From Vibrio vulnificus CMCP6 (GTDB lineage: Bacteria > Pseudomonadota > Gammaproteobacteria > Enterobacterales > Vibrionaceae): a DNA stretch of 32,000 nucleotides. Positions within the stretch are counted from its first letter, which is position 1, and the number at the start of each line of letters is the position of its first letter. A model generated the notes under the pieces. The model saw only the letters and a program-made list of their open reading frames with translations. It was not told the DNA's origin and did no database searches. A program made the translations under genes and the position numbers. This document shows, one piece after another, positions 3,971 through 32,000 of the stretch. The stretch covers positions 870,001 to 902,000 of the forward strand of contig NC_004460.2 in NCBI RefSeq assembly GCF_000039765.1. The letters run 5' to 3'.

Positions 3971-4702
3971 ATGAAAAAAATTTTACTGGCGTCCCTTATC
4001 GGCCTTGTTTCTGCCAATGCAGCAGCGCAACAAGAGATTAAATTTGCGATGGAAGCCACCTACGCACCATTCGAATACATGGATGAGAATAATCAAATCC
4101 AAGGTTTCGACGTCGATTTAGCGAACGCACTTTGTCAGCAACTGGACGCAAGCTGTTCCTTCCATAACCAAGCCTTCGACAGCTTGATTCCTGCTCTGAA
4201 ATTCAAACGTTATGATGCAGCAATCTCAGCAATGGACATTACCGATGCACGTTTAGAACAAGTGGCTTTTAGCGATGCGTACTACGACAACTCAGCGGCT
4301 TTCGTGTCATTTGCAGGCAAGGTCGCCGACCAAGCAGCACTGAAAGGCAAACGTGTGGGCGTACAAAATGGCTCTACTCACCAAAGCTTTTTGCTAGAAC
4401 AAATGACTGGCGTTACTGCCGTACCATACGCAAGCTATCAAGATGCGTTTCTTGATATGAAAAATGGCCGTATCGATTCCGTGTTTGGTGATACTGCTGT
4501 TGTGGCAGAATGGTTCAAGAAAGAAAACAATCTCGCTTATGTCGGCGAGCACGTCACCAACGCACAATACTTTGGTAATGGCTTTGGTATCGCGGTCAAC
4601 AAAGACAACCAAGCCTTGGTCGACCAACTGAATGCCGCTCTAAAAGCGGTAAAAGCAAACGGCGAATACCAAGCAATCTTCAATAAGTACTTCGGTAACT
4701 AA
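3971..4702 (+). CDS. artI: Arginine-binding periplasmic protein (ArtI/ArtJ)
   Basis: Signal peptide, then [33 protein letters not shown]...[11 protein letters not shown]...GVQNGSTHQ...[10 protein letters not shown]. This is strong collinear similarity to E. coli ArtI/ArtJ. Confidence 0.9.
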
Positions 4703-27800: not shown

Positions 27801-29379
27801 CCAAGCGGGTGAGATTTTCTCGCACCGTCTCGGTTGCTAAATTGCCGCGATATTCGCGAAACTCATGCATCGCAACGCCACCTAAGGCAATTTGAGTTGA
27901 ACGCCCTAACAAATACGATTTCTGCAAGTTGCTCAATGGTGTCGCCGCTATATTTTTCGACTCGGATTGCCCCAATGCCGCGTCTAGCTGTTCGAGCGTC
28001 TGATGCATGATTTGTGGGAACGTCGCAAGGCGGCGAATCAACGCAACGTAATGAGCAAACATGGACTCAATCACCTCTTGCTCCAAAAGATCCGAACGAA
28101 TATCCCAGTTAGCTAAAATGCCGCCATAAGCAGGGGCAATCTGCGCATCTAGCGTGACTTGTGCTCCTTGCGAAATCACCCAATTCATCCGGCCTAAACT
28201 GTCCGTCACTTGCTGAGAAAAGAGCTCACCACCGTCGATATCCATACCGGAAGTAAACACCACGGGCGAGCGTTGCACCTGACCCGCCAAGCGTGACAAA
28301 TCACGCATCACCTGCACACCTGAGTATGTTTCATGACTCAGCAACAGGTTCAGTTGGTTCGCCACTTGGCGGCAATGCGACAGCAGCGTCTGCGTTTTGT
28401 CAACGTGAGCACTGAAGATCAGTAGGTTGGAAAAATCGCCCACAGCCTGCTCTATCTGGGGATCATAAATACCACGATGAAAAGTCGGGACATTTAATCG
28501 GAAACGATGTTCACGCGCACCAGTGGCGATCACTTGCGAAAACAGAGCAAGAAATAGCTGTGTTAACGTGAGATGGTGCTCTTTCGCCAACGCCTCTAAC
28601 GCAACACGCTCTTGATGGGTAAACTGATGCGCCAAGCGCTGAGTTTGTGGACGAGCTTCGTTATCCTGGTGGGACAAATAGGGCAAGGGAGGCTCAGGGG
28701 GCAATGATGATAGACGCGCTTGCCACCACTGTTTATCGCTGGCCTTGCGCTGCGCTAAATAGCGATCCGCTTGCTGATGGTCAAGGTAATGAAAATAGGT
28801 TATCTGAGGCTCTTCGCTCATGACTAAATCGGATTCTTGTGCAGACAGGTAAAGTCGCGCTAACTCTTCGACCACAATTCGGAAACTCTGCGCATCGCAC
28901 GCAATCATATCCGCATCAATGTGCAATCGATGCTCATTATTGGCGAGCAAGGTCACACTGATCTCGATGGGGCTGCTTTGATTCAAATCCAAGATTTGGT
29001 GGCTCATTCGCTCTCGCTTGTTATGCAAGAACTGCTCGACCTCTGGTTTGGAATAGCGCGCAATGTCTTCCACCGTTAGTTGGTGACAAGCAGATAGAGG
29101 GAGAATGTGTTGTTGCCCCTCGGCAGTGATCGCTAACCGTAACATGGGATGCTTCGCATACAGTGCCCGCACCGCCATTGATAACGCTTCACGATTTAAA
29201 TCTCGTCCATCGAACTCGGCATAGAGATGGGCAGCCAAGCCTTCCATCGCATTGCCTTTTTGCCTTCCTAACCAATAAGCGGCCTGCATTGCCGTCATTT
29301 CTTTCATGTTAAAATCCAAACATAGTCCATTCACTTCGCCTGTCGGTCTGTCGTCTGTCGGCGCACAATTTGATAGCAT
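24850..29379 (-). CDS. NRPS, Cy-Cy-A plus a carrier-like tail, equivalent to the N-terminal half of VibF
   Basis: Two cyclization domains (MQAAYWLGRQ...IDADMIACDAQS and LQKSYLLGRS...FDALIVDGRS, both DxxxxD). Adenylation cores are LYTSGTTGKPK, GGPTETT, FRTGDQGY, VKVRGVRV and NGKVDRK. The start is uncertain. The track start at 29418 translates the Fur box (MIMIIINV). I prefer ATG 29379 (GGGTGG upstream), and ATG 29307 (MKEMTAMQ) is the alternative. Confidence 0.85.
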   Translation of the reverse strand: MLSNCAPTDDRPTGEVNGLCLDFNMKEMTAMQAAYWLGRQKGNAMEGLAAHLYAEFDGRDLNREALSMAVRALYAKHPMLRLAITAEGQQHILPLSACHQLTVEDIARYSKPEVEQFLHNKRERMSHQILDLNQSSPIEISVTLLANNEHRLHIDADMIACDAQSFRIVVEELARLYLSAQESDLVMSEEPQITYFHYLDHQQADRYLAQRKASDKQWWQARLSSLPPEPPLPYLSHQDNEARPQTQRLAHQFTHQERVALEALAKEHHLTLTQLFLALFSQVIATGAREHRFRLNVPTFHRGIYDPQIEQAVGDFSNLLIFSAHVDKTQTLLSHCRQVANQLNLLLSHETYSGVQVMRDLSRLAGQVQRSPVVFTSGMDIDGGELFSQQVTDSLGRMNWVISQGAQVTLDAQIAPAYGGILANWDIRSDLLEQEVIESMFAHYVALIRRLATFPQIMHQTLEQLDAALGQSESKNIAATPLSNLQKSYLLGRSTQIALGGVAMHEFREYRGNLATETVRENLTRLVEQLPALRTHIDQDKLLQFVSPIIELNLKTFDFQHLSREKALLAVEPLREHYRHKMHDLSGSPWEVCVVQLPPEYASRINTIIFTSFDALIVDGRSHSIILATLLGQQEDGIQDLLPPRSPKRQGPVIDTAKRAQDERYWQEKLHRDCLPPALPWKQPLETIRTSRYARESLQIRRAELQQLTLLGAENGLFVNSLLTAAIVQVLACWTTENGMRIGFPVVIPQQDELAGNESTFVILEHEKSDASVLSQALDLQSDMLEALEHLDFSGVDVNRLLMNGSSPALALPVVITNGLSWQTLKETDDVALFSGVTQTPQMALDIRLTYDEQKNLIVSFDYAVDALETNVVCDILNALKTLLQQLSESQQGLLPSSSFLDLSHYRLNSDETQRDPSDFLSHIARQLFDEANEKTAIICGENTVSYAELGSKVACVIGQLNVRGLQQGSVVAICLPRSVEHLVMTLACSLSGMVWVPIDASSPHDRLAYLLSNCNAELVVTQHGDVVASVAFSELLSPIASEAPLPSDEQLSCLSQSTQTAYYLYTSGTTGKPKCVVVNNQATSNVIGQTCREWSISSQDVIMSVTPYHHDMSVFDVFAAFSSGATLVLPGADGEKDALKWNQLIEQHKVTIWVSVPAILEMLLSCTQGSQLQSLRLVAQGGDYIKPATIAQLRALESSIRLISLGGPTETTIWSIWHELTDADVSTIPYGRPLPGNRYFILDERQQHVPQGVVGRIYTVGVNLAQGYLENGELKQTDFVTINDDRGEPVRAFRTGDQGYYRQDGNIIFASRVNGYVKVRGVRVSLPDIEKELLKHPLIANAVVVDYLDGNGDSALAALFTLNSDKPLTAQQLRQFAQQCLPQSHIPTHFMPMTILPLSANGKVDRKQCQARVVASLLPSESGTHAEREKGEVLKPTLLAQIEQIYRQVIATDEVFDDAQELAFLSRGLLPSHLVSIASLLNQRFASQLSASQLVRCQSAQQVAALLA

Positions 29380-29397
29380 TTCGCCACCCAAATTTAC

Positions 29398-29429
29398 ATT
29401 AATAATAATCATTATCATTTACATGTAAA
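29398..29429 (-). promoter_or_regulatory. Fur box overlapping the predicted promoter of the NRPS-PPTase operon
   Basis: ATTAATAATAATCATTATC (29398..29416) matches 16/19 of GATAATGATAATCATTATC. On the minus strand, TTTACA (29429..29424), a 16-nt spacer and TATTAT (29407..29402) form a candidate promoter whose -10 lies inside the box. Confidence 0.7.
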
Positions 29430-29529
29430 GTAATTAAAATGCCAAACAACGAGGCTTGTAGTGAAAGAATGTCAGTTCATCTTGTTGATTTTACTGGTTA
29501 GCATAGGGTGACTTGAGCAAGATTTCGGC

Positions 29530-29559
29530 TTGACATATCGATTCCTCTTTCTTAATAAT
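29530..29559 (+). promoter_or_regulatory. Candidate sigma70 promoter of the DAHP synthase gene
   Basis: Perfect TTGACA (29530..29535), a 17-nt spacer, then TAATAA(T) (29553..29559). The Fur box lies just downstream. Confidence 0.4.
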
Positions 29560-29567
29560 TCCGACAT

Positions 29568-29590
29568 TAACGATAATAATTATCATTAAC
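29568..29590 (+). promoter_or_regulatory. Fur box upstream of the DAHP synthase gene
   Basis: GATAATAATTATCATTAAC (29572..29590) matches 16/19 of the Fur consensus. The 22-mer at 29568..29589 is the exact reverse complement of 31829..31850. Confidence 0.7.
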
Positions 29591-29637
29591 ATTATTTATT
29601 TTTACAACTCAGTTACCGATATGGCTCAGGGGGAAAC

Positions 29638-30708
29638 ATGCCTACGCTCAGCAAATTGATTCACTCCACTCCTTGTGGAACACTCCCTTCTGTGGAAGAG
29701 ATCATTCAACACGCCTCACTGGACGAAGAGAGCGAAGCGTTTATCCGACAACGTCGCCAAGACATCACTCGAATTCTGAATGGCCAAGACCCTCGATTAC
29801 TGGTGATCATCGGCCCATGTTCAATTCACGACCCGCAAGCAGGCCTAGAATATGCGCAGAAACTGGCCAACATTCAGCATCAGCATGAAAAGCAACTTCT
29901 GATTGTGATGCGAACTTACTTTGAAAAACCGCGCACACGCGCAGGATGGAAAGGGCTGATCGTCGATCCCGATCTCGATAACAGCCACGACATTAATAAA
30001 GGTCTGCGGCTTGCTCGACAATTCTTACAGCAAGTCATCAAGCTTGGCCTTGCGACGGCAACCGAGTATTTAGACACCACGACTTACCCCTATATTTCTG
30101 ACCTCATTTGCTGGGGTGCCATTGGCGCGAGGACAACTGAATCTCAAATTCACCGTCAAATGGCCTCGGCGCTTCCCTGTCCTATTGGTTTCAAAAACGG
30201 GACCGACGGCAATGTTGATATTGCTATCGACGCGATACACGCGGCAAACTCACCCCATCTCATCTGTGTGCCAGGATTTGGGGCACGTACTCTCACAGCC
30301 ATCAGTCATGGTAACCCCAATGGCCATATCATTTTGCGAGGTGGCAAAACGCCAAACTACACCACCGAGCATGTTTGCCAAATCAGCCAACAACTGGAAG
30401 CCAACGATCTTAACCCGCGCCTGATCATTGATTGCAGCCATGGCAATAGCCTGAAAGTGGCAAAGAACCAACTCGATGTGGCGAGAAACATCGCCTGTCA
30501 GTTGATCGAAGGAGAAAAATGCATTGCAGGCGTGATGGCGGAGAGCTTCTTGGTAGCAGGCGCGCAAAAGATCACCGATCGTCCGTTGGTCAAAGGCATG
30601 TCGATTACTGATGAATGTTTGGGGTGGGAAGAGACGGAAAGTATTCTCAATATTTTTGCGGAAGCGGTGAATGTCGTGATGACGGAGCGCTTTTCCACCG
30701 TTGCCTAA
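29638..30708 (+). CDS. 3-deoxy-7-phosphoheptulonate (DAHP) synthase, class I AroG/F/H type
   Basis: 356 aa, collinear with E. coli AroG: LLVIIGPCSIHDP, MRTYFEKPRTRAGWKGLIVDPD, WGAIGARTTESQIHRQMAS, GFKNGTDG, IILRGG, IDCSHGNS, GVMAESFLV, GMSITDECLGWEETE. A GGGGGA RBS lies upstream. Confidence 0.9.
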   Translation: MPTLSKLIHSTPCGTLPSVEEIIQHASLDEESEAFIRQRRQDITRILNGQDPRLLVIIGPCSIHDPQAGLEYAQKLANIQHQHEKQLLIVMRTYFEKPRTRAGWKGLIVDPDLDNSHDINKGLRLARQFLQQVIKLGLATATEYLDTTTYPYISDLICWGAIGARTTESQIHRQMASALPCPIGFKNGTDGNVDIAIDAIHAANSPHLICVPGFGARTLTAISHGNPNGHIILRGGKTPNYTTEHVCQISQQLEANDLNPRLIIDCSHGNSLKVAKNQLDVARNIACQLIEGEKCIAGVMAESFLVAGAQKITDRPLVKGMSITDECLGWEETESILNIFAEAVNVVMTERFSTVA

Positions 30709-30717
30709 ATCACCAGT

Positions 30718-30766
30718 GGGACTAGGGACTAGGGACTAGGGACTAGGGACTAGGGACTAGGGACTA
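30718..30766. repeat. Tandem heptamer (GGGACTA) x7
   Basis: Seven exact units counted directly. The block starts 10 nt after the DAHP synthase stop. Confidence 0.95.
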
Positions 30767-30767
30767 G

Positions 30768-30807
30768 CAAACTAGAAAACTAGAAAACTAGAAAACTAGA
30801 AAACTAG
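30768..30807. repeat. Tandem octamer (AAAACTAG) x5, first unit CAAACTAG
   Basis: Counted directly. It is contiguous with the heptamer block. Confidence 0.95.
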
Positions 30808-30883
30808 CAACCTAGCAACCTAGCAACCTAGCAACCTAGCAACCTAGCAACCTAGCAACCTAGCAACCTAGCAACCTAGCAAG
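30808..30883. repeat. Tandem octamer (CAACCTAG) x9 plus a partial unit
   Basis: Nine exact units (30808..30879) followed by caag. Confidence 0.95.
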
Positions 30884-30891
30884 CATATCAA

Positions 30892-30926
30892 AGGAATGGT
30901 TACCATCCACCATTCCTCTTCTTTTG
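30892..30926 (+). terminator. Rho-independent terminator downstream of the repeat array
   Basis: aggaatggt (30892..30900) pairs with accattcct (30909..30917), with an 8-nt loop, followed by cttcttttgcttc. This places the whole repeat array inside the DAHP synthase 3' UTR. Confidence 0.6.
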
Positions 30927-30939
30927 CTTCAGCAAGTTA

Positions 30940-31728
30940 TTAATTATCCAATGTCGCACCACCGTCAACTCTGAGATCGTGCAAGGTAATGTGCCCTGCG
31001 TGCTCGGAAAGTAAAAACAGTACCGACCGTGCGATGTCTTGTGGCTCAGCCATTTTTCTTAACGGAATCCCCAAACGAAATTGCTCTAAATTCCCTGCAA
31101 TGACTTGAGGTTCACCGTATTCTTCCGACCACAATTGCATCTGCATGTCTGTGCGTGTTGAACCGGGGCTGACAATATTGCAGCGTACTCCATATTCCGC
31201 CAACTCCATTCCCATCGATTTAACCAGCATGTGCAACGCCGCCTTAGATGCCCCATAAGCCCCCATATTTGGACGAGGTGTATTGGCCGCATTAGAACCG
31301 ACAATCACCATACTGCCTGAGCGTCGTGCTTTCATTCCTTCTGCCAAGGCCTGCATCACCGCCAAGGTACCAAACGTGTTCACATTGAAAGTGTGCTCAA
31401 TTTGCGCCAGAGGCATGCTCGTAATGGAGCCAAGATGCAATACGCCGGCACAACATACGAGGTGATCAAACTGGCCATGTTGTTCAATCATTTGCGCCAC
31501 ACGACGAGCAACAGACTCCGGCTGAGAAAGATCCAAGTGATAGCAAAATAACTGCTCGCGATAGCGGTTCTTCAATGCGTCACTGTCTGTCTTGAGTCGC
31601 ACTTCATCGATGTCCGTGGCGACCACTCGAGCCCCCGCTTCAAGTAGATGCTGCATCACACTGAAACCAATACCTTTCGCCGCACCAGTCAGAAAAACAG
31701 TTTGTTTTTCAAGAAATTGGTTAAACAT
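30940..31728 (-). CDS. vibA: 2,3-dihydro-2,3-dihydroxybenzoate dehydrogenase (EntA/VibA/DhbA family SDR)
   Basis: 262 aa. It has the SDR motif TGAAKGIG, the catalytic YGASKAAL, and a C-terminal half that closely parallels E. coli EntA (GVRCNIVSPGSTRTDMQ...FRLGIPLRKMAEPQDIA...HITLHDLRVDGGATL). Confidence 0.9.
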   Translation of the reverse strand: MFNQFLEKQTVFLTGAAKGIGFSVMQHLLEAGARVVATDIDEVRLKTDSDALKNRYREQLFCYHLDLSQPESVARRVAQMIEQHGQFDHLVCCAGVLHLGSITSMPLAQIEHTFNVNTFGTLAVMQALAEGMKARRSGSMVIVGSNAANTPRPNMGAYGASKAALHMLVKSMGMELAEYGVRCNIVSPGSTRTDMQMQLWSEEYGEPQVIAGNLEQFRLGIPLRKMAEPQDIARSVLFLLSEHAGHITLHDLRVDGGATLDN

Positions 31729-31827
31729 AAAAACGTTATCTCTTTAATCTGTGTTCACTTATCCCGTCATGGATATCTGCACCCATGCTATAAATTCGTG
31801 ATTTAATGCACAAAAACAAACTTAGAT

Positions 31828-31850
31828 ATTAATGATAATTATTATCGTTA
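31828..31850 (-). promoter_or_regulatory. Fur box upstream of the EntA/VibA gene
   Basis: The minus-strand reading GATAATAATTATCATTAAT matches 15/19 of the Fur consensus. It lies about 100 nt upstream of the ATG at 31728. The 22-nt core is identical to the DAHP synthase operator in the same gene-relative orientation. Confidence 0.7.
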
Positions 31851-32000
31851 GCATTTAAATCGTGATAACTGTAATCTTACTCCACTGAATAAGCAACCTA
31901 TACCCAACCGATGACATTGCAGGCCAGACAAACATGCCGACTCACAAACATAACGAGTCTATGGCATTGAGATCAGTCCGTCGCCACCACCGCAAAGTTG

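Follow-up and report, generated by a model that had tools for sequence, protein, structure and literature searches.

"The window" here means the whole 32,000-nt stretch of Vibrio vulnificus CMCP6 DNA that was analysed. Its feature of interest is a short array of tandem repeats that lies where two genes converge, flanked on each side by a stop codon. The plus-strand gene (29638-30708) encodes a DAHP synthase of 356 aa that is AroH-like (Pfam PF00793, E 1e-79) and scores highest in NCBIfam with the Trp-sensitive AroH model (471.8 bits; cut-off 463). Its 99%-identity protein cluster bears the name Vibrio vulnificus; its 90%-identity cluster holds 337 sequences, and 39 of the 40 members that were read are named, the name being again Vibrio vulnificus. 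The minus-strand gene (30940-31728) encodes a VibA/EntA-like 2,3-dihydro-2,3-dihydroxybenzoate dehydrogenase (Pfam adh_short; NCBIfam TIGR04316 at 368.8 bits, above the cut-off of 300). An NRPS and a phosphopantetheinyl transferase are parts of a catechol-siderophore cluster, which in related loci is completed by an isochorismate synthase and a DHB-AMP ligase just past the window edge. The genes are laid out as in the vulnibactin cluster described for VV2_0828-VV2_0844 (PMC3900857). There the dehydrogenase is VV2_0834, to which the dehydrogenase gene of the window corresponds in function and position, and the DAHP synthase gene would accordingly be the neighbour of VV2_0834 in that cluster.

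Four genes of the vulnibactin cluster that have been tested are under iron and Fur control (PMC3900857). A Fur-box-like site in the DAHP-synthase promoter region (29572-29590) matches GATAATGATAATCATTATC at 17 of 19 positions and is overlapped by further matches of 14-16/19; similar sites lie at 29398-29422 and 31825-31852, and both divergent promoter regions carry such sites. A promoter-like TTGACA-18-AATAAT is found at 29530-29559. An earlier description of this DNA, made from the letters alone (the sequence-only reading), had called the mRNA Fur-regulated. The 17/19 box, together with the published control of the neighbouring genes (PMC3900857), is consistent with that: Fur regulation is well founded for the cluster, and we infer it for the DAHP-synthase gene.

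The array itself (30718-30883) reads (GGGACTA)7-G-(CAAACTAG)1(AAAACTAG)4-(CAACCTAG)9-CAAG, whether it is read directly, by TRF or by regex parse. Block 1, (GGGACTA)7, occupies 30718-30766 on the plus strand; it is a G3N4 heptamer whose G-rich strand is the sense strand, and the G at 30767 finishes its final CTAG. Block 2 (30768-30807) consists of one CAAACTAG followed by four AAAACTAG, and block 3 (30808-30879) of nine CAACCTAG, ending in the partial unit CAAG (30880-30883), all in the same plus-strand sense. TRF resolves two periods: 7, with 7.1 copies at 100% match (30718-30767), and 8, with 14.9 copies at 97% match (30764-30882). The array is 166 nt long and contains no degenerate unit (regex parse). 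Of the 66 CTAGs in the window, 21 fall in it; throughout blocks 2 and 3 their spacing is exactly 8 bp, and in block 1 the period is 7 bp. Three blocks, 166 bp, 21 CTAGs and no degenerate units are also what the sequence-only reading had reported, and the match is exact. Short units placed head to tail with near-perfect identity are the mark of a VNTR; the units are contiguous, with none of the unique spacers that separate the repeats of a CRISPR array. The array had been described as non-coding as well, and no ORF of at least 20 aa crosses it on either strand. An Rfam scan of 29300-32000 at E<=1 returned no match in the array; its single hit is a chance-level tmRNA fragment outside it (8.9 bits, E 0.92).

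A 9-nt spacer, ATCACCAGT (30709-30717, plus strand), separates the DAHP-synthase stop codon from the array and contains no terminator. A terminator-like hairpin, AGGAATGG...CCATTCCT, lies on the plus strand 8 nt beyond the array (30892-30917, with its tail extending to 30927): its stem has 9 bp, of which 4 are GC pairs, and its T-rich tail is CTTCTTTTGC. All resolved V. vulnificus alleles have this hairpin. Because this sole terminator-like hairpin lies 3' of the array, it is reasonable to place the array, as the sequence-only reading did, most likely within the 3' UTR of the DAHP-synthase mRNA. (A weaker terminator reading exists for the minus strand at 30908-30894.)

How constant is the array from strain to strain? 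Exact look-up of the window's DAHP-synthase protein and of five V. vulnificus variants of it retrieved 38 further loci from public assemblies. The array is fully resolved in 25 of the resulting 39 V. vulnificus loci (the window included); in 10 the contig ends inside it and in 4 it contains N gaps, short reads being unable to span such repeats. The 25 resolved arrays comprise 24 distinct sequences, with 3-15 copies of GGGACTA, 0-14 of CAAACTAG, 0-13 of AAAACTAG and 0-12 of CAACCTAG, counts that come mostly from short-read draft assemblies, in which errors are possible, and that are less trustworthy when taken as exact. Total length ranges from 88 to 210 nt and the number of CTAGs from 10 to 25. 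Alleles differ by whole units or by single-base variants of a unit, and by nothing else; block 2 or block 3 is wholly missing from some of them (block 3 from two). The array was retained in every one of the 39 loci (complete loss: 0/39), with never fewer than 10 CTAGs, and a divergent haplotype has it too; selection could explain this persistence, and so could purely mutational persistence.

The pace of change can be judged against the flanking DNA. Six strain pairs have 0 SNPs in 5,071 bp of flank, and in all six the array differs: the window, for example, has copy numbers (7,1,4,9) and its SNP-free partner, locus L001, has (7,1,4,4). Change in the array thus outpaces the gain of a single substitution in 5 kb of flank, and whole-unit differences in copy number among close isolates, set in conserved flanks, are again what characterizes a VNTR. 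Ongoing slippage had been proposed on the strength of the perfect identity of the units, with invariance of copy number across isolates named as the observation that would overturn it. Copy number varies, 24 of 25 resolved alleles differing and doing so by whole units even between strains with identical 5-kb flanks, and the proposal is supported.

Superimposed on the rapid variation in copy number is a slower one in the kind of unit. Unit composition tracks lineage (lineages being distinguished by their DAHP-synthase protein variant); copy numbers vary inside lineages. In strains of protein variant P0124 the CAAACTAG block is expanded, CAACCTAG is nearly absent and the last partial unit shows a G-to-C change. 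Strains with P0001, together with L002 (which has the window's protein variant), carry CAAACCAG-GAAACTAG and AAGACTAG variants, and P0121 strains have no AAAACTAG at all. A divergent haplotype (L143-L146) contains 62 nt of unique sequence between spacer and array, has no block 2, and begins its array 71 nt from the stop codon. More generally, the minor unit variants AAGACTAG, TAACCTAG, GAAACTAG, CAAACCAG and CAACCCAG mark particular lineages. The single CAAACTAG of the window is informative in this respect: it is one substitution away from AAAACTAG and one from CAACCTAG, and it reaches 14 copies in one lineage. The blocks are thus steps in one series of mutations, any unit type being expandable, and the number of expandable types is shown to be at least four, not three. 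The conjecture that one repeat had evolved stepwise into the others is upheld by the intermediate position of CAAACTAG, by its own expansion, and by the lineage-marking variants. One can think of the locus as carrying two clocks, a fast one of copy number and a slow one of unit type that keeps time with lineage.

The siderophore cluster can be compared with its counterparts in other vibrios. The order NRPS / DAHP synthase / convergent SDR dehydrogenase / isochorismate synthase is shared by five further Vibrio species: Vibrio sp. SCSIO 43132 (DAHP synthase 74% identical, convergent spacer 104 nt), vnigr-6D03 (70%, 190 nt), V. splendidus (69%, 46 nt), V. fluvialis (65%, 84 nt) and V. cidicii (61%, 44 nt). 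None of the five has a tandem repeat in the convergent spacer, which in each is 44-190 nt long and contains a single hairpin. The array is therefore a V. vulnificus-specific addition and not a conserved part of the pathway.

With good confidence, then, we regard the array as a slippage-driven, lineage-specific compound VNTR, hypermutable and minisatellite-like, that the DAHP-synthase transcript carries passively at its 3' end. Slipped-strand mispairing would add and remove whole copies much more often than point mutations arise; rare substitutions inside a unit would create new unit types, which could then expand into blocks of their own. It is such expansion of mutated units that would leave several blocks sharing an A/C-CTAG core. 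Most likely a passenger in the untranslated 3' part of the DAHP-synthase mRNA, the array would have no sequence-specific, conserved job: it is probably not a working part of the cell.

The alternative that holds up best against this, though we consider it unlikely, is that the array is a functional 3'-UTR module, acting through a quadruplex formed by block 1, or a ladder hairpin between blocks 1 and 3, or a C/A-rich loading site for Rho. Changes in copy number would then heritably tune the formation or the stability of the mRNA 3' end, and hence the supply of vulnibactin precursor; this tuning is equally doubtful. The argument for it begins with precedent. Heptamer repeats capable of forming G-quadruplexes, GGGAATC and GGGGA(C/T)T, occur dispersed through the genomes of Xanthomonas and Nostoc (Rehm et al. 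2015, PMC4692102), where they obey a placement rule: they lie just after stop codons, on the sense strand (PMC4692102). Block 1 likewise belongs to the widespread class of stop-proximal G3N4 heptamers, its G-rich strand in the sense strand and its first nucleotide following the 9-nt spacer, and at least four G-tracts at a 7-nt period are present in 24 of the 25 resolved alleles. It differs from the Xanthomonas and Nostoc repeats in its unit (GGGACTA conforms to neither GGGNATC nor GGGGA(C/T)T), in being followed by blocks 2 and 3, which are not G-rich, and in that the quadruplex here is a predicted one.

Does the rule hold for GGGACTA in other genomes? A scan of metagenome contigs for (GGGACTA)4 found at least 120 arrays, of which 93 among the matches listed were evaluable. 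None of the arrays of four or more units among those matches lies inside an ORF. In 59 of the 93, the stop codon of a same-strand ORF falls between -14 and +50 nt on the 5' side of the G-rich strand (median 5 nt), and in 11 of these 59 the first TAG of the array is itself the stop codon. The mirror orientation is found in only 16 of the 93 (binomial p ~7e-10). (A technical note: the minimum ORF length was 100 aa, and the result holds when it is raised to 150 or 200 aa; the calling of ORFs is crude, yet symmetric between the strands.) Leading-strand G excess combined with gene co-orientation may contribute to the strand bias. The excess hints that the class of stop-proximal G-rich heptamers may not be neutral, and it extends the still unexplained stop-codon rule to a new unit, GGGACTA.

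Against a function of this kind stand, besides the absence of the array from the five related species that share the operon layout, the array's own alleles. One of them has only three G-tracts, two lack block 3, and the divergent haplotype places its array 71 nt from the stop codon. For the Xanthomonas and Nostoc heptamers too, Rehm et al. identified no regulatory role (PMC4692102).

Predicted folding adds less than appears at first sight. The array folds to -77.8 kcal/mol on the plus strand (z -5.7 against shuffles) and to -104.7 kcal/mol on the minus strand (z -7.8), stabilities that would at face value speak for a structural module. CTAG is self-complementary, however, and any array of CTAGs will fold on itself; for this reason the z-scores are no evidence of selection. 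In the predicted ladder the CUAGG of block 1 pairs with the CCUAG of block 3, and block 2 forms the apex; the rungs measure 5-6 bp, and an inverted-repeat finder with a minimum length of 10 reported none. As a conserved structure the ladder hairpin was rejected: its arms vary independently, the copy numbers of blocks 1 and 3 being uncorrelated (Spearman -0.19, p 0.36), block 3 is dispensable, and predicted stability spreads about twofold across alleles, from -0.20 to -0.43 kcal/mol/nt. Ladder hairpins of this sort could nonetheless help slippage along. Block 1 folded alone by a G4-aware method gives -14.9 as against -13.2 kcal/mol and is, on paper, quadruplex-capable; in the full array the same kind of calculation lets the hairpin ladder win over the quadruplex. 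Only the placement rule, then, favours a functional module, and it leaves that reading improbable.

In its boldest form the functional reading makes the array a heritable 3'-UTR "rheostat", in which quadruplex or ladder, possibly with entry of Rho, would set how much DAHP-synthase mRNA survives. This is a long shot, less probable again than a functional module in general. If it held, clones of V. vulnificus would come through slippage to have unequal supplies of vulnibactin precursor, and the strand-biased, stop-hugging (GGGACTA)n arrays would mark an unrecognised class of 3'-end regulatory repeats.

The CTAG in every unit invites a different thought, namely that the array offers a lattice of sites to a DNA-binding protein that recognises CTAG, such as a TrpR-like repressor, serving as decoy or distal operator; the sequence-only reading had also floated an array of sites for a CTAG-recognising factor. 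TrpR, which controls aroH in E. coli, occupies CTAG centres in tandem at a spacing of 8 bp. The array resembles TrpR tandem operators in having a CTAG every 8 bp (exactly so in blocks 2 and 3) and in adjoining an AroH-like gene, the one whose best-scoring subfamily is the Trp-sensitive AroH. CTAG is, furthermore, retained in all expanded unit types; the tally of about 6 spacer variants against 2 CTAG-to-CCAG variants among the V. vulnificus units is too small to tell constraint on CTAG from neutrality. Other bacteria have comparable arrays: when bacterial genomes, one per species, were scanned for runs of five CTAGs 8 nt apart, at least 120 loci matched, and period-8 arrays with an invariant CTAG and differing spacers make up 43 of the 120 matches listed. 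Perfect AAAACTAG arrays occur also in V. maerlii, Aliiroseovarius and Thalassobius, a AAGACTAG array in Vibrionales SWAT-3, and GGGACTAG arrays in cyanobacteria, all among the matches listed; the 13 period-8 CTAG loci that were inspected among these matches are intergenic without exception.

The resemblance to an operator is formal. A TrpR-type tandem operator is at odds with the flanks of the CTAGs: the units present ACTAGG, ACTAGA, ACTAGC and CCTAGC and never the palindromic ACTAGT. It is at odds also with the 7-bp period of block 1 and with the location of the array 3' of both genes, away from the promoter region (29400-29637), which contains Fur boxes and no CTAG. Site number is unconstrained, ranging from 10 to 25 with no block required, and the related species do without the array altogether. 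A control in viral contigs, as distinct from bacterial genomes, reran the CTAG scan pattern with other tetramers of identical composition: period-8 arrays numbered 45 for CTAG, 55 for GATC, 63 for GTAC, 45 for CATG and at least 120 for CTGA/TCAG. CTAG is thus no commoner as the core of octamer arrays in these contigs than GATC, GTAC or CATG, and the notion that it is a special core was dropped; arrays with variable spacers are known for GATC and GTAC too. Absence from five relatives, dispensability of every block, flanks that are not palindromic, and no enrichment in viral contigs together tell against the CTAG-recognising factor, and a binding lattice strikes us as very improbable. Common descent of the units adequately explains why each has its CTAG.

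The rarity of the tetramer elsewhere needs a qualification as well. Outside the array, CTAG occurs 45 times in 31.8 kb of the window (~1.4 per kb), so that ~0.23 would be expected per 166 nt. It had been said to be under-represented, and relative to base composition that is correct: observed/expected in the window outside the array is 0.37, the second lowest value of any palindromic tetramer. Relative to the trinucleotide (Markov) expectation the same count gives 1.07, and here the claim fails. The depletion is real but comes down to that of the CTA, TAG and TA components of the word.

That the polymorphism is largely an artefact of short-read assembly, the true array being much less variable, is suggested by the contig ends or N gaps in the array at 14 of the 39 loci, with which assemblers evidently struggle, and is just as hard to believe as the lattice: the resolved arrays, at 88-210 nt, are short enough for reads of 150-300 nt, alleles differ in which units they contain as well as in how many, unit composition tracks lineages defined by protein, and the L003 and L009 assemblies have the identical allele, so that the process is not random noise.

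A passive, compound VNTR, the reading that we prefer, has ample company. VNTRs are well known in vibrios and already serve for typing both V. vulnificus (PMC2815951) and V. cholerae, and in kind the array is ordinary. The nearest relative in appearance is the V. cholerae MLVA locus VC0437, whose motif is listed as "gacccta" (PMC6905556), as the sequence-only reading had correctly remembered. Its reverse complement, in tandem, is GGGTCTA, one base away from GGGACTA and likewise with a CTAG in each unit. Like the array it is a Vibrio heptamer VNTR, and it owes its use in typing to the variation in copy number between closely related isolates. It is built from one type of unit; the V. vulnificus array is compound, and has four types that can expand and periods of both 7 and 8. 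VC0437 is presumably a different chromosomal locus and not orthologous to the array. Within V. vulnificus, SSR typing relies on 12 SSR loci (Broza et al. 2007) with 2-34 alleles per locus (PMC2815951). These loci display the same phenomenon in the same species; the array is an unusually rich example of it and may already be among the 12.

Farther afield, the compound structure has a counterpart in a Phormidium locus (L066) in which ACTGGGG, GGAGATAA and (GGGGACTA)14 stand side by side, several unit types in one array as in V. vulnificus. Cyanobacterial STRR heptamers and the compound arrays of cyanobacteria are intergenic, with heptamer or octamer units and often more than one unit type next to each other. 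STRRs occur as a family across the whole genome of their hosts; the V. vulnificus array is known here from a single locus. The phase-variable contingency loci of Haemophilus and Neisseria share what would be the mechanism, slippage with heritable and reversible changes of length. Their SSRs sit in promoters or 5' coding regions, where the gain or loss of a unit switches promoter or reading frame; the array lies 3' of both neighbouring genes and outside any promoter or frame, and therefore cannot act as an on/off switch of the contingency type. Were it to act on mRNA 3' ends, quantitative variation driven by a repeat would here arise from a 3' UTR and not from a promoter or reading frame, which would be unusual.

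The array has its uses even as a passenger. With 24 alleles in 25 resolved strains it makes a highly informative marker for V. vulnificus at one locus. Short-read assemblies repeatedly break in it, inside a virulence-associated siderophore cluster, and it offers a clean natural example of one short repeat spawning daughter repeats. A small heptamer near the NRPS start (29336-29360) was considered as a possible second VNTR and proved nearly invariant, with one haplotype distinguished by a 7-nt indel.

Phased CTAG arrays elsewhere among bacteria are frequently not simple repeats: in 43 of the 120 matches listed by a scan of bacterial genome contigs (one genome per species) for five CTAGs at 8-nt spacing, the tetranucleotide recurs unchanged at 8-nt intervals but the 4-nt spacer differs from one interval to the next. 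Five CTAGs phased in this way would be expected by chance less than once across the whole genome collection. Examples among the genome-contig matches are L024 (3972-4411; 55 CTAGs split over three runs), L104 (2975-3066; 12 CTAGs with 9 distinct spacers), L092 (203-286) and L099 (41-108). AATT, GATT/AATC and AAGC/GCTT are frequent spacers, and all eight of the variable-spacer arrays whose flanks were inspected are intergenic. Among the matches listed, those with titles come mostly from rumen or gut Bacteroidales, Paludibacteraceae, and Lentisphaeria/Kiritimatiellae MAGs. This architecture is not peculiar to CTAG, since viral contigs have variable spacers in 17 of 55 GATC and 20 of 63 GTAC period-8 arrays.

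The heptamer of block 1 also has a wide distribution: arrays of at least four GGGACTA units are frequent among environmental contigs, with at least 120 such matches (L483-L602; median GC 0.61 among the matches listed). Their placement is strongly strand-biased; among the matches listed, 59 have the G-rich strand as sense directly after a stop codon, against 16 in the mirror orientation. In the former group stop and array lie a median of 5 nt apart, and for 11 arrays the first TAG serves as the stop codon itself.

Within V. vulnificus, the 5' edge of the array (window 30709-30718) exists in two forms. In four loci (L143-L146, at approximately 4072-4140) a unique 62-nt segment, which contains a small GATAGA repeat, separates the stop-proximal spacer from the heptamer block. 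Judged from this comparison of sequences, the common haplotype, to which the window belongs, looks like the product of a microhomology deletion at GTGGG that would have moved the array beside the stop. Unit variants that lose CTAG are confined to two in the V. vulnificus arrays, each a change to CCAG: one in block 2 (L002, L131 and L132), the other in block 3 (L144). In one lineage the change, one of few events in all, generates CCAGG, the Dcm/Vsr target context.

Short-read assemblies of V. vulnificus frequently fail at the array (the equivalent of window 30718-30883): 10 contigs end within it and four loci have N gaps there (together L010, L131, L133, L134, L137, L143, L145, L146, L155, L156 and L162-L165), and the vulnibactin cluster is therefore often broken here into separate contigs.

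The NRPS ORF, as annotated, contains in its 5' end a short, imperfect repeat of heptamers (29336-29360), for which TRF gives the plus-strand consensus TCGTCTG; read along the NRPS sense strand, the unit is CGACAGA-like. Two of 38 V. vulnificus loci share a haplotype in which a single 7-nt unit of this repeat is missing. Gene callers disagree on NRPS length across strains (1485, 1489, 1509 or 1520 aa), which suggests that the true start lies downstream of this repeat.

A second, simpler length polymorphism occupies the same intergenic gap as the array: at 30937-30950, immediately 3' of the stop codon of the dehydrogenase gene, a 17-nt duplication (TTATTAATTATCC plus CAGC or CGGC) is present in many V. 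vulnificus strains and missing from the window.
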